Source: Kiritimatiellia bacterium
GTDB lineage: Bacteria; Verrucomicrobiota; Kiritimatiellia; RFP12; JBMNHG01
Assembly (NCBI GenBank): GCA_050950285.1
Contig: JBMNHG010000002.1
Coordinates: 886,654 to 950,653, forward strand
Length of the DNA: 64,000 nucleotides
Reading direction: 5' to 3'
In this document: positions 48,041 through 64,000 of the stretch, piece by piece
How the letters are laid out: each line of letters begins with the position of its first letter
How positions within the stretch are numbered: the first letter of the stretch is position 1
Position numbers and translations under genes: made by a program
The notes under the pieces: model-generated
The model's input: the letters and a program-made list of their open reading frames with translations, nothing else
Database searches by the model: none
Told to the model about the DNA's origin: nothing

Positions 48041-49611
48041 CACTAGCATCCCATAGGCTAAGCCGGAAACATTCCGGTTCCCATGATTGGCACCTATTAT
48101 GCGGGGGGGGGGTGAAAACAGTCAACCCCGTAATTCCGCAAAAAAATATGTCGGCTTCGGAGCCGTTCGCCTGTAGCCTACAGGCGCATGAAAAAGTTGA
48201 TTCCCCAATTGCTCGGGGGCACGCCCCCGAAGCCGACGAAGACAGAATACACCGTGCTGCGGCAGCTCGTCCAATGGATTCCCTCCGGGATGATCCAGCG
48301 GCTGGCGGACGAGCACAAGCTCGACATCCGCAAGTGGTCCGCGGTGAGCCATGTGGTCGCGCTGATGTACGGGCAGCTCGCGGGCTGCGACAGCCTCAAC
48401 GGGATCGTGGACGCGGCCCGCGTCCACGAGGGCGAGTGGCGCAACATCCGGGGCGCGGAGCCGCCGAAGCGCAACACGTTCTCCAACGCGAACCGGCACA
48501 GGGACGCGGACATGGCCGAGCGGCTCTACTGGGAGGTCTTCGACCACCTGGCCGGGGCCTGCCCCGGCTTCGGGGAGTACCGGAGGCACAAGGGCTTCCT
48601 GGCCCGCCTGAAACGCGGGATCTTCGCCATCGACTCCAGCACCATCAAGCTGAGCCTGAACTGCATCGACTGGGCGCGGCACCGCAGGAGGAAGGCGGCC
48701 GCCAAGCTGCACCTGCGGCTCGACGTCGGCAGCCGCCTGCCCGCCTTCGCCGTCGTGGAGGACGCGGCGCACCACGACTCCGTGCGAGCGGAGGCTCTCT
48801 GCGCCGGCCTGAAGGCGGGGGACGTGTGCGTCGCCGACCGCGCCTATACGGACTTCGGCTTTCTCGAAGGCCTGCGGTCGCGCGGGGTCTTCTTCGTCGT
48901 CAGGCAGAAGAAGAACATGCGCTTCAAGAGCGTGAAGACGCTTCCGAAAGGCGGTGACGCGTGCGTCGTCTCTGACGAACTCGTCGAGCCCGCCCTCGCC
49001 CGATCGAAGGGTCTCTATCCCTTCCCGCTGCGCCGCGTGACCGCGCGCGTCGTGGTGGACGGGAAGCTGAGGGAGATGGTCTTCCTGACGGACAATCTCG
49101 ACTGGAGCGCGCGGACCGTCGCGGAACTCTACAAGGCCCGGTGGTCCATCGAGCTGTTCTTCAAGGAACTCAAGCAGACCTGCCTGATCCACGACTTCGT
49201 TGGGTACAACGAGAACGCGGTCAGGTGGCAGGTCTGGACGGGGCTGCTCGTCCACCTGCTGCTGCGCTTCATGCGCCACGTCGCGGGCTGGGAACTGAGC
49301 TTCTCGCGGCTCGCGGGCGTCGTGCGCGCGGCGGTCTGGGTCAAGCGCGACCTAACCGCGATCCTCAAAACCTATGGGACAGCACCCCGGCCCAAGCGGG
49401 GTGAGCCAGCCGCGAAACCCCCGCCTTTACAGGCGTTTTTCGACTTCTGGCGGTTCGACTATGGGACAGCAAGCCCGTAAATCCCAAGGAAATCGCGAAA
49501 CGGCCGGCCCCGCCGGGAAAACCTCCAACCCGAAACCCCAAAAGAGACCTCAAAAACCCAAGCAATTCCGCATGGGTAAGGGTAAATTGTGCCGCCTATG
49601 GGATGCTAGTG
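48041..49611 (+). mobile_element. IS4-family insertion sequence (1571 bp) with 18-bp perfect terminal inverted repeats
   Basis: CACTAGCATCCCATAGGC at 48041 and GCCTATGGGATGCTAGTG ending at 49611, enclosing a transposase. Confidence 0.92.
48188..49480 (+). CDS. IS4-family DDE transposase
   Basis: IDSSTI, AKLH, DRAY and LYKARWSIELFFKELKQ (YREK) motifs. Confidence 0.95.
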   Translation: MKKLIPQLLGGTPPKPTKTEYTVLRQLVQWIPSGMIQRLADEHKLDIRKWSAVSHVVALMYGQLAGCDSLNGIVDAARVHEGEWRNIRGAEPPKRNTFSNANRHRDADMAERLYWEVFDHLAGACPGFGEYRRHKGFLARLKRGIFAIDSSTIKLSLNCIDWARHRRRKAAAKLHLRLDVGSRLPAFAVVEDAAHHDSVRAEALCAGLKAGDVCVADRAYTDFGFLEGLRSRGVFFVVRQKKNMRFKSVKTLPKGGDACVVSDELVEPALARSKGLYPFPLRRVTARVVVDGKLREMVFLTDNLDWSARTVAELYKARWSIELFFKELKQTCLIHDFVGYNENAVRWQVWTGLLVHLLLRFMRHVAGWELSFSRLAGVVRAAVWVKRDLTAILKTYGTAPRPKRGEPAAKPPPLQAFFDFWRFDYGTASP

Positions 49612-49760
49612 TGTTCGTTTCATTTCGCCATACTCCTCTCGTCAATACCCCATCACGCAAGCTCCATTCTCAGTGCCTGACCCCGTCCGTCCCCCGATTG
49701 CGGAGACTCTCAAAGAGTCTCCTTCGATTCTCGAATCGTGGCGCACGGTGACTCTTCATG

Positions 49761-49970
49761 TCATTTTGGTTTTTTGTGGCGATCTTCTCGACGATCTAGC
49801 CATGCGCCTAGGAGTTTCAGGCCGAGCCAGTACAGATGCAAAGACGCAACTCCCAACACGGCGGCAAGCACCCAAGCGGCAACTCCGTCCATTCCCGTCC
49901 GTTCCGTCAACAGATATGCTGACAGAACAGTAACGCCGATGAGAACAGACAATGGCAGCAACCCGAACAT
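49761..49970 (-). CDS. Small 2-TM protein, candidate immunity for RHS cassette 3
   Basis: 69 aa with two hydrophobic helices; starts 2 nt after the toxin stop. Confidence 0.6.
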   Translation of the reverse strand: MFGLLPLSVLIGVTVLSAYLLTERTGMDGVAAWVLAAVLGVASLHLYWLGLKLLGAWLDRREDRHKKPK

Positions 49971-49972
49971 GG

Positions 49973-51322
49973 TTACTTGTTCCTCCCTGGTCCTGCATCA
50001 GCGCGATACTGGCCCGCTGCTGAAACGCCAGTGAAAGTCGCGGCAGCGCCACCCATACCCAATGGCGTCGGTCCCGTCGAGAAGGTCTGTCCGATACCCA
50101 ACCACCAACCGGACGCCTCCGGCCTCAACGCTTGTCGCAATCCTTGGTCAGCCACAATTGCGGCTCCTCGGTCAACAGGGTTGGCGTACAAGGCCGAGTA
50201 AAAAGCGTTCGCATCGTCAGAAAGCGTCTTCTGACCAATTTCGTGGTAAAGAACTTGTTTCCAGAGAGGTGCGTTCGCGGCTTGGGATGAGAGGGCAGAC
50301 TGAGCACGAATCGCGGTAGTTCCGACGCCAGCACCAATAGAGCCGACGACGCTGATGCCCGCATCGACAAGGTTTGCGGTGTTCTGCGACATACCCGTCG
50401 TCTCTTGCAGGGCCACAGACGTTAGTGAATCCACCTGCTCGTCTGTGAACGCCTGCCGAACACCGGCCTGGAACTGATCAATGCCATGAGCACCGACTGC
50501 GATACCGCCAGCAGTTCCTGCCGCTCCCGCGACCAGACCCACACCAGTCCAGCTAGAAGCTGCCCCAAAAGCGGCGCTTGCGGTGGCTAAGCTGTATCCT
50601 GCTGCCGCTTCTAAACCCCCGCCAACGGCTCGCATCACTCCAAACGTCTGATTCCAACTCCACAGACCGAGGGGATCATAGTAGAGGAACGGCGCGTTCA
50701 TGGCGTAGGCGTAGAGGTTCGGGCCGCCTGCCATCCCGAGGGGGTCACGTGCGGTCCAGCGCTGTAGCCTTGCGTGATAGTAGCGGTGCCGCGCGAAATA
50801 CAGGTTCCCGGCGGCGGGCCGCAGGCCCACGCCGCCGCACCACTGGTACGGCGTATCCGTCGCCCCCGTCCTCGCCATGACCTCGCCGTAGGGCGAGTAG
50901 AACCATTGATCGGTCGGCACGTTGTTTGTGTCGCTAAGCGCCAGCGTCGAGCCCTGGCCGTCGTGATGGAAGTAGCGGATTGTTCCGTCGGCCTCAACCT
51001 GCGCGACCACGCCACGCCCCCACACGAACCGGCGGATGAGCGCGCCGTTTCCGTCCAGTTCGGCCAACGGTCTGCGCAACGGATCGGCGTAGTCCAGCAC
51101 GAAGACGGTGGTGTTCGTGCTGCCGGATTCAACGGTGACGGCGGCGACGCGGGATCCGTCGCCCGCGTAGTAGTACGCCGCAAAGCCGGACGCCGACACG
51201 ACGGAGACCAGCCGGTTTTCGTAGTCGTATCCGTATGTGTTCTCCCCATCGGTCGTCAGATTGCCTTCATCGTCATGGGCGGGCGTCTTCTCGGTCCAGT
51301 CCTGAACGCCGGGATTCGCCTT
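49973..51322 (-). pseudogene. Orphan RHS core plus toxin C-terminus (cassette 3), no convincing start
   Basis: RHS homology begins at KANPGVQDWTEKTP; YYDPLGL cleavage motif; Gly/Ala-rich C-terminus. Confidence 0.75.
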
Positions 51323-51380
51323 GTGGGGTCCGCCGAGGGAACCATAGGCGGCACCGGAATATCCACTGTTATATTGAAGA

Positions 51381-51638
51381 TCAATTATCACTCGGTCCTT
51401 CTTTCCTGCGGGGGGATGTAAATACATAAAGAATTGCAAATACACCCAGCAACGCTACCCCACCAAGTAGCCCACCAAGGCCCCGAAGATTCAAATGGAT
51501 GTCCGATTGAGCGGCCCCAGATACGCGAAGAAAAACCCATAGGTCAACGGCAAGCCGCACAAGACCTACTGCCGCAAGAAGAATTGAACCGATGGCCAGC
51601 AATACAAAGAGTGATTTTAGGTTTATCATAGGTGTCAC
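51381..51638 (-). CDS. Small 2-TM protein, candidate immunity for RHS cassette 2
   Basis: GTGA overlap with the toxin stop; two hydrophobic helices. Confidence 0.65.
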   Translation of the reverse strand: MTPMINLKSLFVLLAIGSILLAAVGLVRLAVDLWVFLRVSGAAQSDIHLNLRGLGGLLGGVALLGVFAILYVFTSPRRKEGPSDN

Positions 51639-53371
51639 TTAATCCCTTTAGAAGTAGTCCCACCCGCCCAATTTGCTGCGCCGTTGGCCGCGCCAATTCC
51701 CGATCCGATGATGCCAGCCCCAAGAGCGGCATTTGGCGTGAGGCCAGTATACAAAAGCTGAATCGACTTCCCGACGCCCTCTAATGTTGTAGTGGTGAGC
51801 GGCGTTCCAGCTTGGTCAACCCACTGAGCAACGTATGGCGCTTTGAACAAAGGTGAAGTACCCGCCCCACCCAAGGCTTGGAAATCAGCGTTGTTTAGAG
51901 CCGCCGAACCGGTTTCCCATCGGCTGAGCAGCTGCGATCTACTCAAGCCCTGTGCGAGAGGATCAGTTGCCGCAATCGTTGTGGCACGTATGGGCGCGGT
52001 CGCGAGTCCTGCGCCAAGAGACCCTACAACGCTAATGCCAGCATCTGTGAGATTCGCGGCGCGTTGGGACATGCCAGCGGCTTGAAGATCAAGAGATGTA
52101 AACGAATCAACTGGTTCACCTGTCCACATCTGTCGAATACCAGCTTGGAAGGTGTCTACTCCATGCGCTCCAACGGCCGCGCCTCCGACAGCAAGAGCCC
52201 CGAACCCGACAGCACCCAGAACGGTTGGGCTTGTTCCAACTGCCGCAGTACCTGATGCCACTGCAAGACTGTATCCTGCCGCCGCTTCAAGTCCGCCGCC
52301 AAGTGCACGCAATGCTCCCATGGCGCTCACCCATGCACTAAGACCGAGAGGGTCATAGTAGAGGAACGGCGCATTCATCGCATAGGTGTAGAGATTCGGA
52401 CCGCCGCTTATCCCGAGGGGATCCCGCGCAATCCAGCGCTGAAGCCCGGCGTGATAATAGCGGTGTCGCGCAAAATACAAATTCCCGGCAGCGGGCCGCA
52501 AGCCCACGCCGCCGCACCACTGGTACGGCGTATCCGTCGCCCCCGTCCTCGCCATGACCTCGCCGTAGGGCGAGTAGAACCATTGATCGGTCGGCACGTT
52601 GTTTGTGTCGCTAAGCGCCAGCGTCGAGCCCTGGCCGTCGTGATGGAAGTAGCGGGCCGTCCCGTCAGCCTCGATCTGCGCGACCACGCCGCGCCCCCAC
52701 ACGAAACGGCGAACGAGCGTGCCGTTTCCGTCCAGTTCGGCCAGCGGTCGGCGCAACGGATCGGCGTAGTCCAGCACGAAGACCGTGGTGTTCGTGCTGC
52801 CGGATTCGACGGTCACGGCGGCAACGCGGGAGCCGTCGCCCGCGTAGTAGTACGCCGCAGAGCCGGACGCCGCCACGACTGAGACCAGCCGGTTTTCGTA
52901 GTCGTATCCGTATGTGTTCTCCCCATCGGTCGTCAGGTTGCCTTCATCGTCATGGGCGGGCGTCTTTTCGGTCCAGTCCTGCACGCCGGGATTGGTCTTG
53001 GTCTGGATGCCAGTCAACTCGTCGGCCGCATTCTGGCTGAGCCGCTTGATCGCCGGGGTGACCGTTGGCAGCAGCCCGGCATTGATCTCCATCGCCGTGG
53101 TGTTGCCGTGCGCATCGAGGGTATAGACGCGGTCCACGAAGTTGGACGCGCCGTTGTGGTACTGAATGCGGGTCAGGCGCGATGCGTTGGGAGATAGAAC
53201 CACGAATGGACGCCTGTCTGCCGTGGTGCTGGCACAGGCAGACGGATGAACACAAATATCAGACAGGGAGACAGTCGGCTCAAGAACATCTCGCGGAATA
53301 TGCGCGAAGGCGCTGACGGGACAGGCCATCAACGCCAATGCGACTATCGCGAAATGCCGGAATCGTGTCAT
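51635..53371 (-). CDS. Short RHS toxin (cassette 2): signal peptide, C-terminal RHS core and Gly/Ala-rich toxin domain
   Basis: MTRFRHFAIVALALMACPVSAFA fused to ASRLTRIQY; YYDPLGL motif; ATGA overlap with the upstream YD gene. Confidence 0.8.
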   Translation of the reverse strand: MTRFRHFAIVALALMACPVSAFAHIPRDVLEPTVSLSDICVHPSACASTTADRRPFVVLSPNASRLTRIQYHNGASNFVDRVYTLDAHGNTTAMEINAGLLPTVTPAIKRLSQNAADELTGIQTKTNPGVQDWTEKTPAHDDEGNLTTDGENTYGYDYENRLVSVVAASGSAAYYYAGDGSRVAAVTVESGSTNTTVFVLDYADPLRRPLAELDGNGTLVRRFVWGRGVVAQIEADGTARYFHHDGQGSTLALSDTNNVPTDQWFYSPYGEVMARTGATDTPYQWCGGVGLRPAAGNLYFARHRYYHAGLQRWIARDPLGISGGPNLYTYAMNAPFLYYDPLGLSAWVSAMGALRALGGGLEAAAGYSLAVASGTAAVGTSPTVLGAVGFGALAVGGAAVGAHGVDTFQAGIRQMWTGEPVDSFTSLDLQAAGMSQRAANLTDAGISVVGSLGAGLATAPIRATTIAATDPLAQGLSRSQLLSRWETGSAALNNADFQALGGAGTSPLFKAPYVAQWVDQAGTPLTTTTLEGVGKSIQLLYTGLTPNAALGAGIIGSGIGAANGAANWAGGTTSKGIK

Positions 53372-53541
53372 GCTTGCACGTTCCTCAACCATTCGGGTTC
53401 CAACCGGTCCGGCCAGACGGCCGATAACCAGTACAGGAACGACTTGAGATACTGGCCGTCGGTGATGGAAGCTTCCACGTCCAGGTTGTTCGCCGCGTCG
53501 TACTGGTACGCAACATGGGCATCCGTCTGCGCCGCCGAGTA
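53166..53541. repeat. ~376-bp direct repeat, apparently identical to 55946-56321
   Basis: Read-through comparison at offset 2780 bp. Confidence 0.9.
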
Positions 53542-53652
53542 GTCGGCGGATGTGAGCCGATGCTGCTTGTCGTAGCTGTAGGTGATCGTCGTTCCGGCAT
53601 GGACGCTCGTCACCAGCAGTACCAGCCCAAGGATCAATGTCGCTATCTTCAT
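53368..53652 (-). CDS. Mini secreted YD-repeat protein (94 aa), copy 2
   Basis: Signal peptide, YSYDKQHRLT and YQYDAANNL; GGAGG RBS. Confidence 0.8.
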   Translation of the reverse strand: MKIATLILGLVLLVTSVHAGTTITYSYDKQHRLTSADYSAAQTDAHVAYQYDAANNLDVEASITDGQYLKSFLYWLSAVWPDRLEPEWLRNVQA

Positions 53653-53657
53653 TTTGC

Positions 53658-54218
53658 TTACCTCCGATTTGGGAGACCTTCCGCCAGTCTCCTTCGATTC
53701 TTGAACAGCAGTGTTGCCAGCCCCAAGCCAAACAGAGCAACCGTGCCCGGCTCGGGGACCGTGGCCCACATTCCGATATCCACGCTGGATATGCCAACCG
53801 AACCAGACTCCCCTCTCAAATGAAAATCGCTTTGCCCATCAACCAGTGCCTCACATGGATGGCCCCATGATTGCGGTCTGGAATAGAACGACACTTCATA
53901 TGGCGAGTGATTGCCGGGTTGGCCATCCGGCGCACGGCTCTGAATCAACCCCATGTAGCCGTACTCGACAGGGAAATACGCACCCACCGTATCGCCAACA
54001 TCAAATAGATCTTCTTCAAACACAAGGTGAACGACTACTTGCTCGACGCTCACGAACGACTCTCCAAAGTCGACGAAGAAGTCCAACTGCCCCTCTTCGT
54101 CCAGTTGCCAGGTCTGCCCAGCTTCCGGCGTGAATTCATGCCAATAGAAGGAAGGTCCCGCAAATGCCTGCAAACACACGAAACAGAAGCAAAGGAGCAA
54201 GATGCACATTGGTTTCAT
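53658..54218 (-). CDS. PEP-CTERM sorting domain protein
   Basis: Signal peptide and C-terminal VPEPGTVALFGLGLATLLFKNRRR. Confidence 0.88.
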   Translation of the reverse strand: MKPMCILLLCFCFVCLQAFAGPSFYWHEFTPEAGQTWQLDEEGQLDFFVDFGESFVSVEQVVVHLVFEEDLFDVGDTVGAYFPVEYGYMGLIQSRAPDGQPGNHSPYEVSFYSRPQSWGHPCEALVDGQSDFHLRGESGSVGISSVDIGMWATVPEPGTVALFGLGLATLLFKNRRRLAEGLPNRR

Positions 54219-54499
54219 GGTCGCTCTCGCTTCTTGCGGGCCAATGTTATCAAGGCGAAGACAATCATTGGGACACCGCCTATATCAATGAGCAACAGCA
54301 AGAGCGATAACCAGCGGAACCCAACTGGCAACAACATGGCAACACCTACCGCAGCCATAGCTCCACCCAGCAGAGGAACACAGGAATGGGGCCGCTCTCG
54401 GTGACGAAGGACATAGTAACGAAATGGGAGAAACCAGTTCATGCATATGATGATTCCTCCAACAACAACGAGAACATGTGCTGTAACTTGCATTGTCAT
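54215..54499 (-). CDS. Small membrane protein, candidate immunity for RHS cassette 1
   Basis: About 3 TM helices; ATGA overlap with the toxin stop. Confidence 0.65.
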   Translation of the reverse strand: MTMQVTAHVLVVVGGIIICMNWFLPFRYYVLRHRERPHSCVPLLGGAMAAVGVAMLLPVGFRWLSLLLLLIDIGGVPMIVFALITLARKKRERP

Positions 54500-56151
54500 G
54501 GTATATACTGGCGTTGCCCGAGCGTAACAGCCTTCACCTTCCCGAGAACACCCTCCGTCTGAGGCAACTTCACTGAAGACTTTGGAACGAGAAATGTTTG
54601 ACCGCTTGATGGAGGTGCGAAATCATTCCAAGGAAATGGATCCCATTTGCCGGAACGCAAGTAGTTGCTGAAGGAACTCTTGCCTTTCATTACCCACTGC
54701 CCGGATCGGAGTCCCTCGCCACCCCACCGTGACACCGTAGCCATGTCATCCACATACGGAGCGATTTCCTCCGGCACCACAGCGTCAATCGTGTTTATGA
54801 TCTTTGCCGTCTGCCCGACCTTGCCCCCTCCGCTGGTGGCTGCTCCTGCACCCAGGGTTCCGGCAGTGACGAGAACTTCGCCGACTATTGATCCTTGGCC
54901 TCGCAGTGAACCGGCACGTTCGACATAGTCCGAACTTATTGCATCCCATGTCTGCCCGGGATTTGTTGCGGCGTAGCCTATGCCGCGAGCTGTCTGAACC
55001 GGATGGCGGGCAATCTGATAAAGTCCCTGGGCCATCCCCGCGACCGTATCGCCGTAGCCCATGAAGACCTGCCCTACATCGCCCCAATAACTCCCTGTCT
55101 CCCAGTAGTTCTCAGGGCAGAGCCCCCACGGATCATAATAGAGCCAAGGGGCATTGAACGCATACGCATAGAGGTTTGCACCTCCGGCGATGCCCGCCGG
55201 GTCTCGCGCAGTCCACCGGCGGAGCCCGGCGTGGTAGTAGCGGTGGCGAGCGAAATACAGGTTGCCGACTGCGGGCCGCAGACCCATGCCGCCACACCAT
55301 TGGTACGGTGTTTCAGTGGTTCCAGCGCGCGACATGATCTCGCCGTATGGCGAGTAGAACCACTGGTCTGTGGGCACGTTGTTCGTATCGCTGAGCGCCA
55401 ACGTCGACCCCTGGCCGTCATGATGGAAGTAATGCACCGTCCCATTGGCTTCGATCTGCGCGACCACGCCGCGCCCCCACACAAAACGGCGGATGAGAGC
55501 GCCGTTGGCGTCCAGCTCGGCAAGCGGGCGGCGTAGCGGGTCGGCGTGATCCAGAACGAACACCGTTGTGTTCGTGCTCCCCGATTCCACGGTCACGGCG
55601 GCAACGCGCGAGCCGTCACCGACATAGTAGTATGTCGTCGAGTCGGCCCCCGAGACGACCGTCGCAAGCCGGTTCTCATAATCGTAGCCGAACGTCGAAT
55701 CGCCATCGCTGGTCAGATTGCCTTCGGCATCGTGAACCGGTGTCTTGTCGGTCCAGCCCTGTACGCCGGGATTTGCTTTCGTCTGAATCGTGGTAAGCTC
55801 GTCGGCCCCATTCTGCTTCAAGCGCATAACTTGCGGTGTGACCTGCGGCAAAAGCCCGGCATTGACCTCCATCGCCATGGTGTTGCCGTGCGCATCGAGG
55901 GTGTAGACGCGATCAACGAAGTTGGATATGCCGTTGTGGTACTGGATGCGGGTCAGGCGCGATGCGTTGGGAGATAGAACCACGAATGGACGCCTGTCTG
56001 CCGTGGTGCTGGCACAGGCAGACGGATGAACACAAATATCAGACAGGGAGACAGTCGGCTCAAGAACATCTCGCGGAATATGCGCGAAGGCGCTGACGGG
56101 ACAGGCCATCAACGCCAATGCGACTATCGCGAAATGCCGGAATCGTGTCAT
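54496..56151 (-). CDS. Short RHS toxin (cassette 1): signal peptide, RHS core and a distinct toxin domain
   Basis: Same N-terminus as cassette 2; YYDPWGL motif; tip VSRWGGEGLRSGQWVM...GQRQYIP. Confidence 0.8.
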   Translation of the reverse strand: MTRFRHFAIVALALMACPVSAFAHIPRDVLEPTVSLSDICVHPSACASTTADRRPFVVLSPNASRLTRIQYHNGISNFVDRVYTLDAHGNTMAMEVNAGLLPQVTPQVMRLKQNGADELTTIQTKANPGVQGWTDKTPVHDAEGNLTSDGDSTFGYDYENRLATVVSGADSTTYYYVGDGSRVAAVTVESGSTNTTVFVLDHADPLRRPLAELDANGALIRRFVWGRGVVAQIEANGTVHYFHHDGQGSTLALSDTNNVPTDQWFYSPYGEIMSRAGTTETPYQWCGGMGLRPAVGNLYFARHRYYHAGLRRWTARDPAGIAGGANLYAYAFNAPWLYYDPWGLCPENYWETGSYWGDVGQVFMGYGDTVAGMAQGLYQIARHPVQTARGIGYAATNPGQTWDAISSDYVERAGSLRGQGSIVGEVLVTAGTLGAGAATSGGGKVGQTAKIINTIDAVVPEEIAPYVDDMATVSRWGGEGLRSGQWVMKGKSSFSNYLRSGKWDPFPWNDFAPPSSGQTFLVPKSSVKLPQTEGVLGKVKAVTLGQRQYIP

Positions 56152-56321
56152 GCTTGCACGTTCCTCAACCATTCGGGTTCCAACCGGTCCGGCCAGACGG
56201 CCGATAACCAGTACAGGAACGACTTGAGATACTGGCCGTCGGTGATGGAAGCTTCCACGTCCAGGTTGTTCGCCGCGTCGTACTGGTACGCAACATGGGC
56301 ATCCGTCTGCGCCGCCGAGTA
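55946..56321. repeat. ~376-bp direct repeat (partner of 53166-53541)
   Basis: Read-through comparison at offset 2780 bp. Confidence 0.9.
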
Positions 56322-56432
56322 ATCAGCCGACGTGAGCCGGTGCTGTTTGTCGTAGGTGTAGGTGATGGTTGTTCCGGCGTGCGCTGTCGCCACCATAAGT
56401 AGAATGCCAAGGATCAAGGTCATGTTCTTCAT
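56148..56432 (-). CDS. Mini secreted YD-repeat protein (94 aa), copy 1
   Basis: Signal peptide, YTYDKQHRLT and YQYDAANNL; GGAGG RBS. Confidence 0.8.
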   Translation of the reverse strand: MKNMTLILGILLMVATAHAGTTITYTYDKQHRLTSADYSAAQTDAHVAYQYDAANNLDVEASITDGQYLKSFLYWLSAVWPDRLEPEWLRNVQA

Positions 56433-56463
56433 TGTCGTTACCTCCGGTTATTGTGGGCATCGT

Positions 56464-57024
56464 TCATTTGCCTTCTCGGGCATGTCCTTCTTCGAGCGGA
56501 GAAACGTCGAGTGCAAAGTTCGTATTAGGTAGTAGCGTCGCACGATAACGCTCACCTACCCTCACGGGGCGTTCCGCCGAGACAAAGTACTGAATGGCCT
56601 CGCGCCTTCCCCTAATCCTTATCCCCTGACTGAGGAACCATGTCCCCATATAAGTTGAACGGGCAACGACTTCCCCGTCTACTACATCCAGTCTCCTCCC
56701 GCTGATGAAAGCAATGGTTCCGCGCGTTACGGGAAAAAGAAGATGCCATGTCAGGCCAAATGCGCATAATAGGAAAAAAGCCCTGGATATCCGTTCCACG
56801 AGTGCTCGTTCGCGCATCCGTTGTGGGGACGCCAATTTACCGCCCCTGATCACAGCATAACTTGGACTTATCCCAAGCACGGCAAGACACACGACCGCAG
56901 CCGCCAGAAGAACCAGGGACGCGACCAAGCGTAGAATCCAAGCATGTGGCCCGAGCATTATGAGGCCGGGGTAAACGCTCACTAAGAGAATCCATCCTAC
57001 TCGCCTTGCGGTTTTGGCGGTCAT
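56464..57024 (-). CDS. Membrane protein, candidate immunity for the full-length RHS toxin
   Basis: About 3 TM helices plus a soluble beta domain; ATGA overlap with the RHS stop. Confidence 0.7.
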   Translation of the reverse strand: MTAKTARRVGWILLVSVYPGLIMLGPHAWILRLVASLVLLAAAVVCLAVLGISPSYAVIRGGKLASPQRMRERALVERISRAFFLLCAFGLTWHLLFPVTRGTIAFISGRRLDVVDGEVVARSTYMGTWFLSQGIRIRGRREAIQYFVSAERPVRVGERYRATLLPNTNFALDVSPLEEGHAREGK

Positions 57025-60000
57025 TTGCCGGGCCTCGGTGTCGTGGTGTACTGCTGCAATGTGCCGTTACCCCCCCCATCCAACATTGAAGACCCCCGTT
57101 GAGATCCGCCGTAAAGGACCGCCGCACTCATTGTGCTCGGCAGTATGTTCATCGTGGCCTGTCCGGCAAACATCTTCGTAGCGGTTTGTGCCGTTACGTT
57201 TTGTATCTGTTCATTTGCAAATTTTGTTGTGATCTGCTTGCTTACGGCGATGGCGCTGCCCCGGCCTGCTGTGATTCCTTGGATTTTTGGACCCGGAATG
57301 AAGCTGACGGCAGTGCCCACCGTCACGTCGCGAGCAAAGTCCCCTGCATCAAATCCCTGCAACTGACCTGTTTCGACATAACTACTCGAATTATCGCCTA
57401 CCTGTTTCACAATATTTCCCATGGCAGCCCCGCCTGCGCCCGCGAGAATGGGATTTGCTGTGTAGAGCAAGATTGCGCCGCTCGTTGCTCCGGCGGTGGC
57501 GGCACCGATATAATTCTGAGATGGGCTGACTTGCCCCCCAATCAAGTCGGCAATACCCTGGCCTGCCAAGCCAATAATTGCGCCTCCGCCAATGAAAATG
57601 GCGTCGTCAACACCCGCCCAAAGACCTGCAGGATCAGAGAAACGGAGCGGGTTCGCGTTGGCATAGGCATACAGGTTGGCACCGCCTGCCATCCCAATCG
57701 GGTCACGTGCGGTCCAGCGCTGTAGCCTTGCGTGATAGTAGCGGTGCCGCGCGAAATACAGGTTCCCGGCGGCGGGCCGCAGGCCCACGCCGCCGCACCA
57801 CTGGTACGGCGTATCCGTCGCCCCCGTCCTCGCCATGACCTCGCCGTAGGGCGAGTAGAACCATTGATCGGTCGGCACGTTGTTTGTGTCGCTAAGCGCC
57901 AGCGTCGAGCCCTGGCCGTCGTGATGGAAGTAGCGGACCGTCCCGTCAGCCTCGATCTGCGCGACCGCGCCGCGGCCCCACACGAAACGGCGGATGAGCG
58001 CGCCGTTGCCGTCGAGTTCGGCCAAGGGTCGGCGCAACGGATCGGCGTAGTCCAACACGAAGATAGTGGTGTTCGTGCTGCCGGATTCAACGGTGACGGC
58101 GGCGACGCGGGATCCGTCGCCCGCGTAGTAATAGAACGCCGATTCCGAAGCCGCCGAAGCTGAAACGAGCCGGTTCTCGTAATCGTAGCCATACGTGTTG
58201 TCGCCATCGGTCGTCAGGTTGCCTTCGCCATCGTGTACCGGCGTCTTCTCGGTCCAGCTCTGCACGCCGGGATTCGTCTTGGTCTGGATGGCGGTTAACT
58301 CGTCGGCCGCATTCTGGGTGAGCCGCTTAACCATCGGGCTAACTGTAGGCAGCAGCCCGGCATTGATCTCCATCGCCGTGGTGTTGCCATGGGCATCGAG
58401 GGAATACACGCGATCAACGAAGTTGGAGGTTCCGTTGTGATACTGAATGCGCGTCAGGCGCGATGCGTCGTCCCAGGTCCATGTGCCGGTGGCCGCCGTG
58501 GGATAATCCACGCCGGTCTTGCGGTGCAGATCGTCATACGTGTAGGCCGTTGTGCGGTTCCCCCAGTCGGCAACCTGCGTCAACCGGTCGGCGGCGTCGA
58601 AGGTGTAGCCCACGGCAACGCTGCCTGGATACAGGATGTTCGTTCGGTTTCCGTTCCGGTCGTGAGAATAGCCAACCACGGATTGCACGGAACCCACGGA
58701 TTGGGTCACCACGGATAGCCGGTCCATCTGATCGAACCCGTACCAGACTTCGGCCACGGCGTTGCTCTGGTAGGTTCGCAGTCCGACTTCGTTGTAGGCG
58801 TAGCGGACCGTGTTCGTGTCGGGATAGGCTATCTGCGTCAGACGGTTGAGTTCGTCATAGGCGTATGCGATCACCGCGCCGTCGGCATCGTTGCGTTCGA
58901 GCAGATTGCCCGCCGCATCGAAGATGAAGCTCCGGGAGTTGCCCACGGCATCGGTTTCATTCGTCATGCGATTCATGCCGTCGAAGGCGAAGGTGCGGAC
59001 CTTGCCCAGTCCATTCTGGAAGGCGAGCAGGTTCCCGAGCGGGTCCAGGGTGTACCGTTCCGTCACCCCGTCCGGCTTGATCTCGGCGGTTCTGCGCCCT
59101 AATGCGTCATGCTCGAACTGCGTGGTGTAGCCCGTCTCGTCGGTTACGGCGACGAGTCTTCCGGCGGCGTCGAACGTGTTGCTGACGCTGTGCCCCAGGG
59201 GATCGACGGTTCGGATCAGGCGGTTGAGCGCGTCGTAAGCGAAGGCGGTCGCCTTGCCCAGCGCATTGGTCTGCGCGATTACATAGCCATTCGCGTCGAG
59301 GACAAAGCGGGTCGTGTTGCCGAGGCGGTCGGTAACGGCGATCCTGCGTCCGGCACTGTCAAACAGGTTGCTATGGACGCCGCCGCGCGGGTCCACGGTG
59401 GCGACGAGCAGGTCGCGGCTGTCATAGATGTTGGTGACGACGCTGCTGTCAGGGTGCATGATCGACGCCACCTTGTAGGTGGGGGTCCAGGCCGTCACGG
59501 TCTGGCGATCAAGCGGATCGACGACGGCGGTCCTGAGCCCTGCGGCGTTGTAGACGTTGCTGACGGTGTTGCCGAGCGCGTCCGCCACGGACGTGACCAA
59601 GCGGCGCTTGTTATAGGTCATGGTCGTGGCGTTGCCGTCGGCGTCCCGCGCCACAAGCAGATCGCCCCGCGCGCTCCAGGTGTTGGTGACCGTCCCTCCG
59701 TCCGTGCGGGCAATGGTTTGCGGGTTGCCGTAGTCGTCATAGGTGTACGTGGTGATGTTGCCGTTGGGGTCGGTGACGGTGTGCGCAAGGCCCTTGTGCG
59801 CGCCACCGGTGTAGTAGGTCAGCACGGTGGAGTTGGTCAGGGCATCCACCGTGTTGGTGAGGTGATGGCTGGCGTCGTAGCCGTAACGGGTCGTATTTCC
59901 GAGCGGGTCCGTAGCGGCGACGAGATGGTGGGTCGCGTCGTATTCGAAGCGCCAGGCGTTTCCGAGCGCGTCCAGGCGATTGGTCAGGTTGTGGTTCGCG

Positions 60001-63000
60001 TCGTATTGAAAGACGGTGACAAACCCGCGCGCGTTGACGTTGCTCGCCAGGCGGCCCTGTCCATCGTAGTAGCTGTAGGTGCGGTTACCGAGGGCGTCCG
60101 TCGTGCCGAGATTGCGCCCGTCGGCATCGAAGCGGTGTGTCGTTGCGCCACCCTGGGGATCGACTTCGGTCCCCTCGTAACCACTACAGAAGAAGGCCCA
60201 TGCTTCGCCATAGCCGTTGAACTGCGTGACGACCTGGCCGACCTCGTTATAGATGTTGCTCGCGGTCACCTGATCCAGCGGATCGATCAGGGCGGTCATC
60301 CGGTGGTCCGTGTCGTAGGCGTATTCCCAAACGCCGCCGTCGGGATCGGTGAAGCTGGTCAGATCGTCGCCGGTGTAGCCGAAGCTCACGGTGTGTCCGG
60401 TCCCGTCCGATACCTGCGTGAGCGCGCCGCCGGTATAGCTGAAGGTGAGCGCGCGGCTGTAGGAGTCGGTGACGGTCGAGAGATTCGTTTGCGCGTTGTA
60501 CGCGAGACTCATCGTGTTGCCGTCGGCGTCCACGATGGAGGAGAGAAGGCCATTGGCATCGAACCGGTATTCCGTGCCGAAACGCTCCACGAGCCGGAAC
60601 AGGCCGTTGATCTTGACGAGGCCGGTCGTGACGGCGGGCGGCGGGTTGTACGACCCGTCGGGCATGCGCATATAGCTCAGGCCGTGATCGCCCATGCGGA
60701 CGACAATCGTGTTCTGGCACATCTGGTCGAGCGCCCACTTCGTGGCCAACGCGGCGGTGGTCCACTCCCGCACCCCCGCGTTCTCGTCAAGCAGGTCGGC
60801 GACCACATAGGCGGCGGCGACAAGCGCGGCGGCGTCCGACGCCTGGCGCAGACCGAACGCGGCCGCTCCGTCGCTTGCCTCCGCAGCCTGGACATCAAGG
60901 TTGTGTCGCCATCCGTAGCCAAGCTGACGTGGGCGCGCGGCCTCGCCGCTGCTGTAGGACAAAACGAGCTGCTGTCCGCGCGGCTGCGGGGCGCTCCCGA
61001 GGGCAAGGGCCGGTTTCTGATGCAGCAAATGACCGGTGCGCAGGTCCACGGGATCGCGCGCCGTCGTGGCGGCGATCTGGGTTTGCGGCGCGGGGGAGAT
61101 GGCATTGACGTACAGGTTCTGCGTGGCCGGGACGCTGTACGGAACGGGCTCCCCGCCGTACCCGCCGCTGTAGCCGCCCCCGATGATCATTCCCATGGCG
61201 GCCGACCACGTCTGCCCCGACGACTGACTCCAGAAGTGAGCGAAACCGTAGCCAGACCATTGCCGCACGGAAATCGAGCCGTTTTCGGGAAGGAGGATCA
61301 CGGAATCCGCGTCCATCCGGGCATCGAGTTCCGAAAGCGTTTGCGCCGAGTAGTTGGTCAGCGCCGCGCGGACGGTTGACCAGTTCGCGCTGTCGGCAAG
61401 GAAGGTGCGGTGTCCGGCGGCGTTGTTCTCGAACGCGATCTTGATGGTGGATGCCGCAGGCCGGTTCGTGCCCTGCGTCTGTTCGAGAACGCCGTGTTCA
61501 AGCGCGCTGGCGAAGAAGCTGTCGGCCTTCATGAGCGTTTCCCAGTCCGATGCCTCGCCGGAGAAGGGCAGGGTTTGCGACCGCAGGCCGGGAAGGTCCA
61601 GATAGTACCCTTCTTCCTGCCCCATGACGCCCAGGAAGTGGTGACTGTAGCAGATCGCGTCCGCGATGTGCCCGAGCATGGCGCTGGAGAGCTTCCACTG
61701 TTCGAGGCCGCCGACTGCGGAGGCGTGCATGGCGTAGAGACGAGCCATCTCGCTGGATGGAGAGTGGCCAGCGGCCAGGAGCGATTCGAACTCGCGAGCC
61801 GCCTGCATGGATTGGCGTCGCGAGGCGGACCCGAAGTCGTAGACAAGCACGTAGCTGTTGGTGCTCTTCAAGGTCTGTTCAATCGAGTCGTCCGCCCATC
61901 CCGCGCTCGCATAGGGTTGGTCGATGGTCCAGGTCAGGGTGTTGGTTGCGCCGGGGGTGGTGGGAGCGCCAACGGCCACCGCTTCCCCGTCCAGCCACAG
62001 CTTGGGCGCGTAGCTTGCGGACGCGTCGTGCGTGATCATGAGAGGGCGGCCTCCCAACTCGTACCCGGAAAAGGTCCTGGCGATGTTCTGGTAGGTGACT
62101 GTTACGCTCAAGATTCGCGCGGCGGGCACATGATCGAACGTGGTGCGACTTGCGGAAGCGACGTCCTCGGCATACGGCAAAGCCGAAGGCAGATTCGTGA
62201 CGGCTTCAGGAGAAAAGACTCGGCCGCCGACGAGAGCGTCGATTCCCTTGGTGTCGTATTCCGCGCGAAGCGTGCCGAGCAGATTGGTGGCGAGTCGCGT
62301 CAGCTCGACGGACAGGTTGGCGGCGTTGACATCCCGGACCCAGGCGGCGTTGGTCGTTGCGCCTTGCATGGCGGCGGCCAGCAGGTTCGTCCGGTCGTAA
62401 GACAGGACGGACGCCAGGTTGGTCGCTTGCGTGACGGAGCACTCGGCAAAGGCGGGATCGAGCGTGTACCACTGCCCGCCGATATCGGCTTCGACCCACA
62501 CGCGGCGGATGCCCGTCCATATCTCCTGTCCCCCCGGCGCATAAACCGCATGCCAACCGTCGGCCGTGCCCGTGCCGAAGCCGTCCGGCCAGCCGCCGTT
62601 GTAGAACACGTAGCCCCCGAGATCGTTGTAGTCGCCATTCCCGCCGAAGCCGCACCAGCGCGAGAGCCGAGGGGTGTCGTAGTAGACGATTGCGGTGGCA
62701 TAGCGCGTCGCGTATCCGGCCGCGCGTAGCATGGCGGAGAGTAGTGCGGCCTGATCCCAGTCGTTTCCCTGACCGGCAACCAGGCAGCCGTGAGCGCCCA
62801 GCTTGACGCCATAGGTCGGGGCATCGTAACGGATATGGTTGCGGACGAACTCGTAAATCCTCAGCGGGTCGTTCCGCAGGGCGCTAACGGCCGTTTCGAT
62901 CTCGGGGGTAAGGGTGGTCTCGTTCGTACATGTGGTGGTTCCGCTCGCTTCGGTAAGCAAGACCATGCCGCCGCCCTTCTCCCCACCCGCGCCGGGACTC

Positions 63001-63131
63001 TGTGAATCCAGACGACGGGCGTTGGCGCGCCAGTCCGCACGCGCGAGGGGTGTGAAGAGAGCCAACGTCGCCAGAGCAACGCAAGCGAAGCGCATAGGAG
63101 CCCGATTGATCGTCACAAGCCGTCTTTTCAT
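57021..63131 (-). CDS. Full-length RHS/YD-repeat polymorphic toxin (~2036 aa) with signal peptide and N-terminal transglutaminase-like domain
   Basis: Signal peptide ...TPLARA; IYEFVRN...GNDWDQAALL.AMLRAAG and VWVE; DPVDLRTG; many YD repeats; FSDPAGL; glycine-rich C-terminus. Confidence 0.9.
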   Translation of the reverse strand: MKRRLVTINRAPMRFACVALATLALFTPLARADWRANARRLDSQSPGAGGEKGGGMVLLTEASGTTTCTNETTLTPEIETAVSALRNDPLRIYEFVRNHIRYDAPTYGVKLGAHGCLVAGQGNDWDQAALLSAMLRAAGYATRYATAIVYYDTPRLSRWCGFGGNGDYNDLGGYVFYNGGWPDGFGTGTADGWHAVYAPGGQEIWTGIRRVWVEADIGGQWYTLDPAFAECSVTQATNLASVLSYDRTNLLAAAMQGATTNAAWVRDVNAANLSVELTRLATNLLGTLRAEYDTKGIDALVGGRVFSPEAVTNLPSALPYAEDVASASRTTFDHVPAARILSVTVTYQNIARTFSGYELGGRPLMITHDASASYAPKLWLDGEAVAVGAPTTPGATNTLTWTIDQPYASAGWADDSIEQTLKSTNSYVLVYDFGSASRRQSMQAAREFESLLAAGHSPSSEMARLYAMHASAVGGLEQWKLSSAMLGHIADAICYSHHFLGVMGQEEGYYLDLPGLRSQTLPFSGEASDWETLMKADSFFASALEHGVLEQTQGTNRPAASTIKIAFENNAAGHRTFLADSANWSTVRAALTNYSAQTLSELDARMDADSVILLPENGSISVRQWSGYGFAHFWSQSSGQTWSAAMGMIIGGGYSGGYGGEPVPYSVPATQNLYVNAISPAPQTQIAATTARDPVDLRTGHLLHQKPALALGSAPQPRGQQLVLSYSSGEAARPRQLGYGWRHNLDVQAAEASDGAAAFGLRQASDAAALVAAAYVVADLLDENAGVREWTTAALATKWALDQMCQNTIVVRMGDHGLSYMRMPDGSYNPPPAVTTGLVKINGLFRLVERFGTEYRFDANGLLSSIVDADGNTMSLAYNAQTNLSTVTDSYSRALTFSYTGGALTQVSDGTGHTVSFGYTGDDLTSFTDPDGGVWEYAYDTDHRMTALIDPLDQVTASNIYNEVGQVVTQFNGYGEAWAFFCSGYEGTEVDPQGGATTHRFDADGRNLGTTDALGNRTYSYYDGQGRLASNVNARGFVTVFQYDANHNLTNRLDALGNAWRFEYDATHHLVAATDPLGNTTRYGYDASHHLTNTVDALTNSTVLTYYTGGAHKGLAHTVTDPNGNITTYTYDDYGNPQTIARTDGGTVTNTWSARGDLLVARDADGNATTMTYNKRRLVTSVADALGNTVSNVYNAAGLRTAVVDPLDRQTVTAWTPTYKVASIMHPDSSVVTNIYDSRDLLVATVDPRGGVHSNLFDSAGRRIAVTDRLGNTTRFVLDANGYVIAQTNALGKATAFAYDALNRLIRTVDPLGHSVSNTFDAAGRLVAVTDETGYTTQFEHDALGRRTAEIKPDGVTERYTLDPLGNLLAFQNGLGKVRTFAFDGMNRMTNETDAVGNSRSFIFDAAGNLLERNDADGAVIAYAYDELNRLTQIAYPDTNTVRYAYNEVGLRTYQSNAVAEVWYGFDQMDRLSVVTQSVGSVQSVVGYSHDRNGNRTNILYPGSVAVGYTFDAADRLTQVADWGNRTTAYTYDDLHRKTGVDYPTAATGTWTWDDASRLTRIQYHNGTSNFVDRVYSLDAHGNTTAMEINAGLLPTVSPMVKRLTQNAADELTAIQTKTNPGVQSWTEKTPVHDGEGNLTTDGDNTYGYDYENRLVSASAASESAFYYYAGDGSRVAAVTVESGSTNTTIFVLDYADPLRRPLAELDGNGALIRRFVWGRGAVAQIEADGTVRYFHHDGQGSTLALSDTNNVPTDQWFYSPYGEVMARTGATDTPYQWCGGVGLRPAAGNLYFARHRYYHARLQRWTARDPIGMAGGANLYAYANANPLRFSDPAGLWAGVDDAIFIGGGAIIGLAGQGIADLIGGQVSPSQNYIGAATAGATSGAILLYTANPILAGAGGAAMGNIVKQVGDNSSSYVETGQLQGFDAGDFARDVTVGTAVSFIPGPKIQGITAGRGSAIAVSKQITTKFANEQIQNVTAQTATKMFAGQATMNILPSTMSAAVLYGGSQRGSSMLDGGGNGTLQQYTTTPRPGK

Positions 63132-63153: not shown

Positions 63154-63999
63154 CTACTCGACGTTGAGATCGTCGCAGAGCACCGAGCCGCCGACGCCGC
63201 TGCGGATACGCATGGCACCGAGCCGCGTTATGCTGTCGTTCTTGAACCCGAGGCCGGACAGCTTGAGCGTGCCATCCACGTACAGGCTCCACGTCTTCGC
63301 GGAGTAGTTCTGCACGATCTTGAGTTCGACCCATTGATTGAGAAGGTTGGCCGTACCGGAGGCGGTGGACCAGGAGCCTCCGCCGGAACCGTTGCCGTCA
63401 AATGCGCGTAGGCCGGTTCCGGCTTCGAAACTTACCAGACTGCTCGCCGTGGCGGGCAGGTCGGTCGGCACGGAGAACTGGGGACCGAGATTGACAAACA
63501 GCGTCGTCGCAACGGAATTGTTCGTTGCGGCGAAGTGCATGGTCATGGTCGCTTCGAGGGCTTCAAGCTCGACGAACTGGCTTCCGGCGTGCGCCATGCC
63601 CGACTGCACGGTTGCGCCAGAACTCCCTTCCCAACCGTTCTGACCGTTCAGCGCGCCGATGCTGTAGCCATTCGCACTCTCGAATCCGGTGGTATACGGC
63701 AACGGGCTGTTGTGGGTGTTGATCGGGTCCGTTCCGTACACGAATAGCTCGTCGTAGTCCGACACCCCGTCACCGTCCGAATCCCAGGCGTTCGGATTCG
63801 TGCCATATAGGCGTTTCTCCCTGCCGTCGCTGATGCCGTCCCCGTCGGTGTCGTCGAGCGTCCAGCAGTCGTAGAAGCGGACCGTGTAATTCGTGGCATC
63901 CTCGTCCACCCACGAGAAGGAGTTCGTGCTCAGGTCCACGTTGGTCGTAAGCGCGATCACCCAGTCCTGTTCCATGAGGTTCGTGCAGGCGAAGAAGTC
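63154..63999 (-). CDS. Protein with DxDGDG Ca-binding (thrombospondin type 3-like) repeats and a C-terminal beta-sandwich (5' end outside window)
   Basis: DTDGDGISDGRE...GTNP and DSDGDGVSDYDE...GTDP; frame open to the window edge. Confidence 0.75.
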   Translation of the reverse strand, partial: DFFACTNLMEQDWVIALTTNVDLSTNSFSWVDEDATNYTVRFYDCWTLDDTDGDGISDGREKRLYGTNPNAWDSDGDGVSDYDELFVYGTDPINTHNSPLPYTTGFESANGYSIGALNGQNGWEGSSGATVQSGMAHAGSQFVELEALEATMTMHFAATNNSVATTLFVNLGPQFSVPTDLPATASSLVSFEAGTGLRAFDGNGSGGGSWSTASGTANLLNQWVELKIVQNYSAKTWSLYVDGTLKLSGLGFKNDSITRLGAMRIRSGVGGSVLCDDLNVE

Positions 64000-64000
64000 C

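Follow-up and report, generated by a model that had tools for sequence, protein, structure and literature searches.

Predicted in-trans wall panel and leader-bearing short toxin genes at an RHS locus of a Kiritimatiellia bacterium

Solved Rhs cages are either single chains opened by force from a type VI secretion system (T6SS) or B/C pairs joined end to end, which TcA opens. What holds an Rhs toxin in place and frees its cargo where T6SS and TcA are lacking is the question addressed by the wall panel acting in trans that we propose here for an RHS toxin array of a Kiritimatiellia bacterium. The DNA analysed (the window) is 64,000 nt of contig JBMNHG010000002.1, positions 886,654 to 950,653; coordinates below are positions in the window, and all genes of the array lie on its (-) strand. 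Among the closest described systems, as given in the available portions of the papers cited here, an architecture of signal peptide, inactive transglutaminase, RHS repeats, variable tip and immunity genes was described by Zhang et al. 2012 (PMC3482391). The orphan rhs-CT/I modules of Salmonella Typhimurium are expressed, and their delivery needs recombination onto the full gene (PMC7043789). Teneurin uses a gap in its wall as an exit (PMC5851990), and the solved shell of a bacterial teneurin-like protein (TLP) has no opening (PMC13018210).

Read on the (-) strand, the array consists of a TSP3/LamG protein gene, a gene for a 2035-aa RHS protein (the main gene), an immunity-like gene, mini-YD 1, short RHS 1, a second immunity-like gene, a PEP-CTERM gene, mini-YD 2, short RHS 2, another immunity-like gene, a leaderless orphan and a last immunity-like gene. 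From the main RHS through immunity 2 the genes follow one another closely: each either shares 4 nt with the next or is separated from it by no more than 31 nt. With modest confidence, we favour the interpretation that a two-gene system of Rhs cage plus panel is encoded here, and that the short RHS genes with a leader are likely exported tip-swapping cassettes which keep the predicted docking site of the panel. The gene order and overlaps, selection on the leader, exchange of tips, the fixed-length linker and the neighbouring four-strand module are read directly from the sequences. On the proposed model, the RHS wall would lack a four-strand panel about 245 residues ahead of the self-cleavage motif, and the mini-YD, itself likely exported, would insert four strands between two RHS strands at a linker. 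Cage, panel and short forms would presumably meet after Sec export. Where it forms the end of a larger upstream protein the panel would tether the cage directly, and where it stands alone it would do so via its tail, to the surface; its loss might open a side exit for the self-cleaved tip. A short RHS with its panel would form an open cup with an autoprotease, not a closed cage, and would for that reason carry its tip exposed; variable junctions would be tolerated because the short forms are open cups. Completion of the wall in trans by the four-strand panel is probable; active deployment of the short leadered forms has slightly better than even chances, and the hatch role of the panel is tentative.

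Predicted docking of the mini-YD and its panel relatives

The two mini-YD genes encode 94 aa each. Mini-YD 1 (56148..56432) has a signal-like peptide, a four-strand YD panel (56244-56375), a short helix and a tail; mini-YD 2 (53368..53652) has its panel at 53464-53595. Signal peptides were called by eye and by a hydropathy rule throughout and are therefore termed signal-like. Complex prediction was made for a single pairing, residues 24-345 of short RHS 1 with residues 20-94 of the mini-YD. It scored 0.87, the best of three controls scoring 0.00, with contact agreement between runs of at least 95% and a partner pLDDT (predicted local distance difference test) of at least 73. The mark used for this score, reached by 116 of 157 solved complexes and by 2 of 215 mismatched pairs, is roughly applicable here, own alignments having been used. 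Residues 21-25 of the mini-YD are predicted to pair with RHS residues 91-97, and residues 59-62 with RHS residues 107-109. The predicted contact flanks a proline-containing linker of about 9 residues, and the mini-YD helix would touch the core near the cleavage motif. This site (residues 91-113 of short RHS 1, 55813..55881) is internal to the wall and not at the free N-terminal edge of the short RHS. An earlier note, made from the sequence alone, had suggested that the mini-YD completes the short RHS in trans. The complex model and the gene neighbourhood support completion, but not at the cut N-terminal edge; the complex modelling which that note had called for gave a high-scoring pairing, at a site that the full-length RHS also possesses. 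Since the predicted site is shared by the full-length protein, the mini-YD would be a partner for the family in general. Taken by itself the score is weak evidence, because pieces of one fold tend to pass through their likeness to solved shells; the position of the predicted contact would be the informative part. A different placement, with the mini-YD replacing the hairpins just before the junction, was considered and set aside: the best pairwise match lies there, but the profile favoured another repeat and the complex model placed the mini-YD elsewhere.

The full-length cage model (residues 690-1840, pLDDT 91.8) has the Rhs fold, the same as that of the T6SS Rhs effector cage (Foldseek E <1e-49). 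At the same site it shows strands 894-901 and 911-916 with a 9-residue coil between them, and 29 of 42 interface residues are identical between the full-length RHS and short RHS 1. From the fold model and this identity, the putative docking site of the full-length RHS (strand-linker-strand) is placed at 58314..58382, where the wall would have an open window at the linker, residues 1583-1605. At 48-49 aa, the segment around this site is constant in length among the 58 sequences closest in an alignment of 111 rows; of the other 53 rows, 3 share this length.

Close homologues of the mini-YD number 36, and matches occur in 25 of 401 genomes of the class, mostly directly before or after a long RHS and often with no short RHS following; among the 60 nearest relatives the mini-YD profile found none. 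The mini-YD is not special to the orphan unit, since it also accompanies full-length genes. In all 41 stand-alone examples collected, the four strands directly follow a signal-like peptide, and the tails are variable. A wall that depends on a panel predicts that a locus with no stand-alone mini-YD encodes the panel somewhere else, and this is what was observed. With cross-validated panel profiles, trained on one half of the loci and applied to those not used in training (cut-off 10 bits), an adjacent non-RHS open reading frame (ORF) carrying the panel was found at 46 of 54 transglutaminase-RHS loci; two loci with no qualifying long RHS were left out. In 29 cases, among them the two other transglutaminase-RHS loci of this genome, the upstream gene ends no more than 6 residues after the panel; in the remaining 17 the panel comes just after a signal-like peptide. 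Among loci chosen via the RHS alone, 38 of 46 have a panel neighbour. The upstream 561-aa protein of the present array has no four-strand panel, unlike the upstream genes at many related loci. Long RHS proteins without transglutaminase but with a mini-YD neighbour all show the long linker by eye (15 of 15). None of the 8 other RHS loci of the phylum has a panel neighbour (best 4 bits), and most of them show, by eye, further tight hairpins at the site; several single-chain RHS proteins have a strongly mini-YD-like stretch there.

Two further groups were seen in these comparisons. At L054, L056-L062 and L093-L102, a long RHS without transglutaminase, in some cases without a detected core, is followed by a mini-YD fused to further domains. 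An RHS group with elongated strands at the same site (P0116, P0117, P0124-P0126, P0142, P0145-P0149) may represent a second solution or another split. Stand-alone RHS-repeat proteins of 65-84 aa are common.

Short RHS genes, their leader and their tips

Short RHS 1 (54496..56151, 551 aa) consists of a leader (55966..56151), a core with intact DPxG motifs and a 206-aa tip. Short RHS 2 (51635..53371, 578 aa) has an identical leader (53186-53371), a predicted docking site at 53033-53101 and a 233-aa Gly/Ala-rich tip. The leader is 62 aa, of which about 23 are signal-like and 39 form a poorly ordered linker, and the short-RHS core is 282 aa up to the DPxG motif. Both short proteins are without the delivery part and are still homologous to the main gene in the core. 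When short RHS 1 was modelled, confidence was high for the core but not for the leader and tip; the model superposes on the C-terminal portion of Rhs, TcC and TLP shells (Z 20-24, root-mean-square deviation (rmsd) 2.7-4.6, 265-298 aligned). The third orphan (49973..51445) has no export signal, its core begins downstream of the docking site, and its start codon is uncertain. Both DPxG motifs are intact in all four cores of the array. Classical orphans lack an export signal, and judged by sequence the two leadered genes do not belong with them.

The repeat anatomy agrees with the earlier note. The two units are offset by 2780 bp, and their longest identical run is indeed 376 bp (copy 1 at 55946..56321, copy 2 at 53166..53541); it runs from within the mini-YD, whose 3' part it contains, through the ATGA overlap and the 62 leader codons to 22 nt into the core. 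The ribosome-binding site claimed for each mini-YD is a GGAGGT 7 nt ahead of its start, the ATGA overlaps lie at 53368-53371 and 56148-56151, and DNA homology to the main gene begins at 53187, 55967 and 58468 as described, the codon junction N|A being 2 nt beyond that start. The signal peptides and tips of the two units differ, as had been noted: the first 37 mini-YD codons are strongly diverged (dS 0.9) and the tips are unrelated. Throughout the 4.05-Mb genome, the mini-YD and the leader each occur only twice.

Mis-assembly of the repeat, which had been raised as a concern, is excluded by contigs from the runs of other studies, 4 sequencing runs from 4 studies, of 24 listed, having been examined. 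One contig of run X9 is exactly the 376-bp repeat, a single contig of run X10 crosses 55453-57092 with zero differences, and run X14 holds a contig across 53166-53796 as well as a core of the main type that ends in leader sequence. Reshuffling of leader and cores is going on in natural populations. The metagenomes containing the sequence come mostly from digesters, bioreactors and landfills, and close relatives are labelled Kiritimatiellia or Victivallales depending on the source. Among the listed runs with the sequence there was no RNA dataset (one RNA-labelled run is probably DNA), so these runs have no bearing on expression.

The junction is not unique to this assembly, since the leader with the same junction recurs in P0039, P0040, P0162, L012 and L013, the last two of which were found by way of their mini-YD. 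Leader deletions keep the frame (81 nt in L012, 30 nt in L013). Compared with L013, the ratio of nonsynonymous to synonymous substitution rates (dN/dS) is 0.24 over 48 codons (p=0.005), and the signal part is the best conserved part (0.18, p=0.014); shifted frames give 1.6 and 5.8. These values support purifying selection on the leader as a protein. A search for the leader on long versus short RHS genes, proposed in the earlier note, found it on short RHS only. Against 1.84 billion representatives, the leader-only profile had 7 matches, of which 4 are credible (181-551 aa, one a fragment), none of them full-length, and 3, all long, were judged spurious. The profile matched 4 of 161 collected proteins, 0 of 120 long RHS proteins and 2 of 401 class genomes, the second of these being a stop-interrupted remnant. 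In two leader matches the junction with the core lies further downstream, by about 100 and 130 residues, and the docking strands are kept in 6 of 8 distinct leader-family rows besides the query. The idea that the second half of the leader is a common short DNA repeat was not supported, exact patterns occurring 0-4 times in the genome. P0171, a fused mini-YD/leader/core, was set aside as a probable sequencing error; its C-terminus is altered too.

Unrelated signal-like leaders stand on short RHS genes at the two other transglutaminase-RHS loci of this genome (G000 C6/C2; L063 11484-17928 and L064 9620-15712) and in L086, L128, L175 and L177. At the two loci of this genome one such gene is intact, and stops or frameshifts interrupt the others; the main gene at C2 has a frameshift about 300 residues ahead of the core end. 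Five unrelated leader types (window, L086, L128, L063, L103) have A-x-[ILV]-P after the predicted cleavage site, possibly a shared sorting motif; it was defined post hoc, is absent in L175 and L177, and occurs in 4 of 43 full-length and 21 of 244 background proteins. By profile search, 57 RHS core matches were counted in the genome (G000 C2, C3, C5, C6, C8, C10, C12); 48 lie outside transglutaminase loci and are mostly leaderless orphans of a 2300-aa family.

The main RHS gene (57021..63128) encodes a signal-like N-terminus by the hydropathy rule, a transglutaminase-like domain after it (PF01841, E 1.5e-11), DUF6531, a YD shell of RHS repeats, an RHS-associated core with two DPxG motifs and a 195-aa tip. 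An Asp stands at what we take, from the motif, to be the position of the catalytic Cys, and the triad is incomplete. By this architecture the gene belongs to the known inactive-transglutaminase RHS polymorphic toxins. The variable tips are exchanged with the downstream cassettes, each of which is followed by a small gene. The main tip is also found on the leadered short proteins P0040 and P0175, full-length P0174 shares both core and tip with short P0175, and the tip of the third orphan occurs on the long gene of L015. A family search with four tips gave no match. Tip 1 (54496-55116) has a weak lead to TNT (PF14021), 0.89, the gene downstream encoding a membrane protein, and a structure comparison of this tip gave no match (TM <=0.32). 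P0039 has the first half of tip 1 joined to a different end. Concerning export, the 99% complete genome has 6 secretins and 0 matches to VipB, the T6SS sheath, and the 14 locus proteins scanned against Pfam gave no match to PAAR, to TcA/TcB-type domains or to the teneurin-like FN-plug and NHL domains. Because no T6SS sheath gene was found, onward export would be via a secretin system, and we infer a route of Sec plus secretin.

As for the remaining genes, the upstream protein is present with its 3' part (63154..64000; TSP3 repeats, LamG-like end). The likely immunity protein of the main tip (56464..57024, 186 aa), assigned by position, overlap and hydropathy, has 3 hydrophobic segments and no Pfam match. 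Likely immunity proteins 1 (54215..54499, 94 aa, 3 hydrophobic segments), 2 (51381..51638, 85 aa, hydrophobic) and 3 (49761..49970, 69 aa) follow their respective cassettes. The 186-aa PEP-CTERM protein (53658..54218) belongs to a type of small gene that recurs between immunity gene and mini-YD in related arrays (L002, L017). Positions 49691..49735 on the (-) strand hold what is left of the hairpin and PEP-CTERM 3' end found ahead of mini-YD genes, the mini-YD itself being gone. L012, L013 and L015 have this immunity gene and remnant too, and there a mini-YD comes after them; here a DDE transposase (PF01609, DUF4372; 48188-49480) comes next and closes the array. Similar elements lie upstream of the locus and in the C2 locus. 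Beyond it, 45658-48033 encodes a 791-aa secreted-type protein with a PEP-CTERM-like end and no Pfam match. Promoter and terminator counts across the array are no higher than in shuffled sequence.

Alternative explanations

Several observations speak against the cage-and-panel interpretation with exported cassettes. A YD hairpin placed on a YD sheet resembles solved Rhs shells, and the passing score may reflect this likeness; the complex controls were unrelated proteins and not YD fragments, and the partner was the short RHS and not the full cage. Eight of the 54 loci fall below 10 bits (5 with a weaker terminal hairpin by eye, 3 with limited flank), and the opposite strand, where 0 of 54 loci have a panel, is a weak control. 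An in-cis counterpart was matched by profile at the site in 3 of 9 and 14 of 53 members of the outside groups versus 12 of 56 family members, and by pairwise insertion in 0 of 9 and 6 of 53 versus 2 of 56; homology of the panel to the in-cis strands of single-chain RHS proteins rests on inspection by eye. The post-signal linker of the leader (dN/dS 0.34 against L013, p=0.13) and the leader compared with L012 (0.43, p=0.075) show no significant constraint. Broken leadered copies exist, and by counts made by hand on the hydropathy rule most short forms carry no leader: one stands on 2 of 8 downstream cores in related loci, on 2 of 29 complete short RHS genes in the phylum sample (15 5'-open ORFs omitted) and on 1 of 40 in the other RHS families of this genome. 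The leader-bearing short RHS proteins P0163 and P0166 are without the docking site. Finally, tip exchange is equally compatible with a plain reservoir.

Such a reservoir as the sole role of the short genes is the main rival, although an unlikely one: the panel would serve the full-length cage only, and the leader would be kept for translational coupling to the immunity genes and for clearing the fragment from the cytoplasm, not for attack. The stacking of the genes from the main RHS to immunity 2, the movement of tips between long and short forms, the variable junctions with the two leadered forms lacking a docking site, the mini-YD that is often the last gene with no short RHS beyond, and the expressed Salmonella orphans whose delivery requires recombination (PMC7043789, available portion) would all fit. 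However, translational coupling needs no signal peptide, because a leaderless orphan with its own immunity gene stands in the same array. The signal part is moreover the best conserved part of the leader, and unrelated leaders share A-x-[ILV]-P, a post hoc motif with the background given above. Short forms remain recombination donors whatever their other role. It is also conceivable, but quite improbable, that the predicted insertion is a modelling artefact and the mini-YD an independent surface protein or folding helper travelling with RHS genes. YD modules pair easily in models, the controls held no YD decoy, the in-cis profile and insertion tests did not separate the groups, and small stand-alone RHS-repeat proteins are common; yet the model bypasses the free N-terminal edge and picks an internal site of fixed length, and the module is constant in size, at a protein end and beside linker-type RHS proteins, being absent beside the 8 other RHS loci.

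We give very little credence to a swap as in TcB/TcC, in which the short RHS would replace the C-terminal part of the main shell at the protein level, one shell thus serving several cargos. Tc shells are two-chained, Yersinia entomophaga has a functional orphan C subunit (PMC11067744, available portion), and the fold of the short core resembles that of the C-terminal region of Rhs and TcC. But the main gene is a complete one, the locus showed no gene for a shell alone, and junctions range from about 170 residues before to 130 after the one here. Because junctions vary by hundreds of residues, the precise split completed by the main shell that the earlier note had envisaged is unlikely. A neutral deletion scar, later duplicated, or a mis-assembly is largely refuted. 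The 376 identical bp indicate a recent second copy, and junction and leader are of single origin. Against this, the repeat is present in independent contigs, diverged leaders elsewhere are in frame, and the leader is selected as a protein and was not found on the full-length proteins searched.

If the cage-and-panel interpretation is correct, the panel would give a function to a common class of unexplained 65-110-aa RHS-repeat genes, and some orphans would be exported in their own right. A wider claim, that there is a widespread undescribed class of Sec-exported cages with a snap-in panel as tether and removable hatch, which would account for the many small stand-alone RHS-repeat genes of bacteria, accompanied by deployed, panel-bound short toxins and not silent orphans, is one that we would sooner doubt than assert. 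Neither a wall panel acting in trans nor a signal-bearing orphan Rhs was found in the literature searched, with supplements and most subscription journals outside its scope.

Comparison with known systems

The following comparisons draw on the available portions of the papers cited. T6SS Rhs effectors such as RhsA share the cage fold (PMC8765631). Their cage is a single chain with an N-terminal plug which, in the authors' model, is opened by T6SS force, whereas the present locus has no PAAR match and the genome no VipB. The Salmonella Typhimurium orphans resemble the short genes in having a short core, tip and immunity gene downstream of a full gene onto which they can recombine (PMC7043789). 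In contrast, they have an internal CTG translation start and act intracellularly, whereas the short genes here have a conserved signal-like leader in a genome where no T6SS sheath gene was found.

The Tc toxins TcB/TcC and YenB/YenC have a multi-chain YD shell, which is predicted here, and an aspartyl autoprotease before the tip (PMC8765631, PMC11067744). B and C join end to end, whereas a module of about 40 residues is predicted here within the wall of one chain; the short core has 282 aa, against about 690 core residues in the YenC2 C subunit. Teneurins and bacterial TLPs share the YD shell and RHS core, many TLPs having Sec signals (PMC5851990, PMC13018210). The teneurin gap lies at the TcB/TcC seam and, as described there, is not filled by a second gene product, unlike the gap that the panel would fill here. 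The Sec-type RHS polymorphic toxins (PMC3482391) are alike in signal peptide, inactive transglutaminase, RHS repeats, variable tip, immunity genes and tip cassettes. Their description, in the portion available, includes neither a separately encoded wall panel nor cassettes with a signal peptide of their own, whereas the array described here probably encodes such a panel and has cassettes with a signal-like leader.

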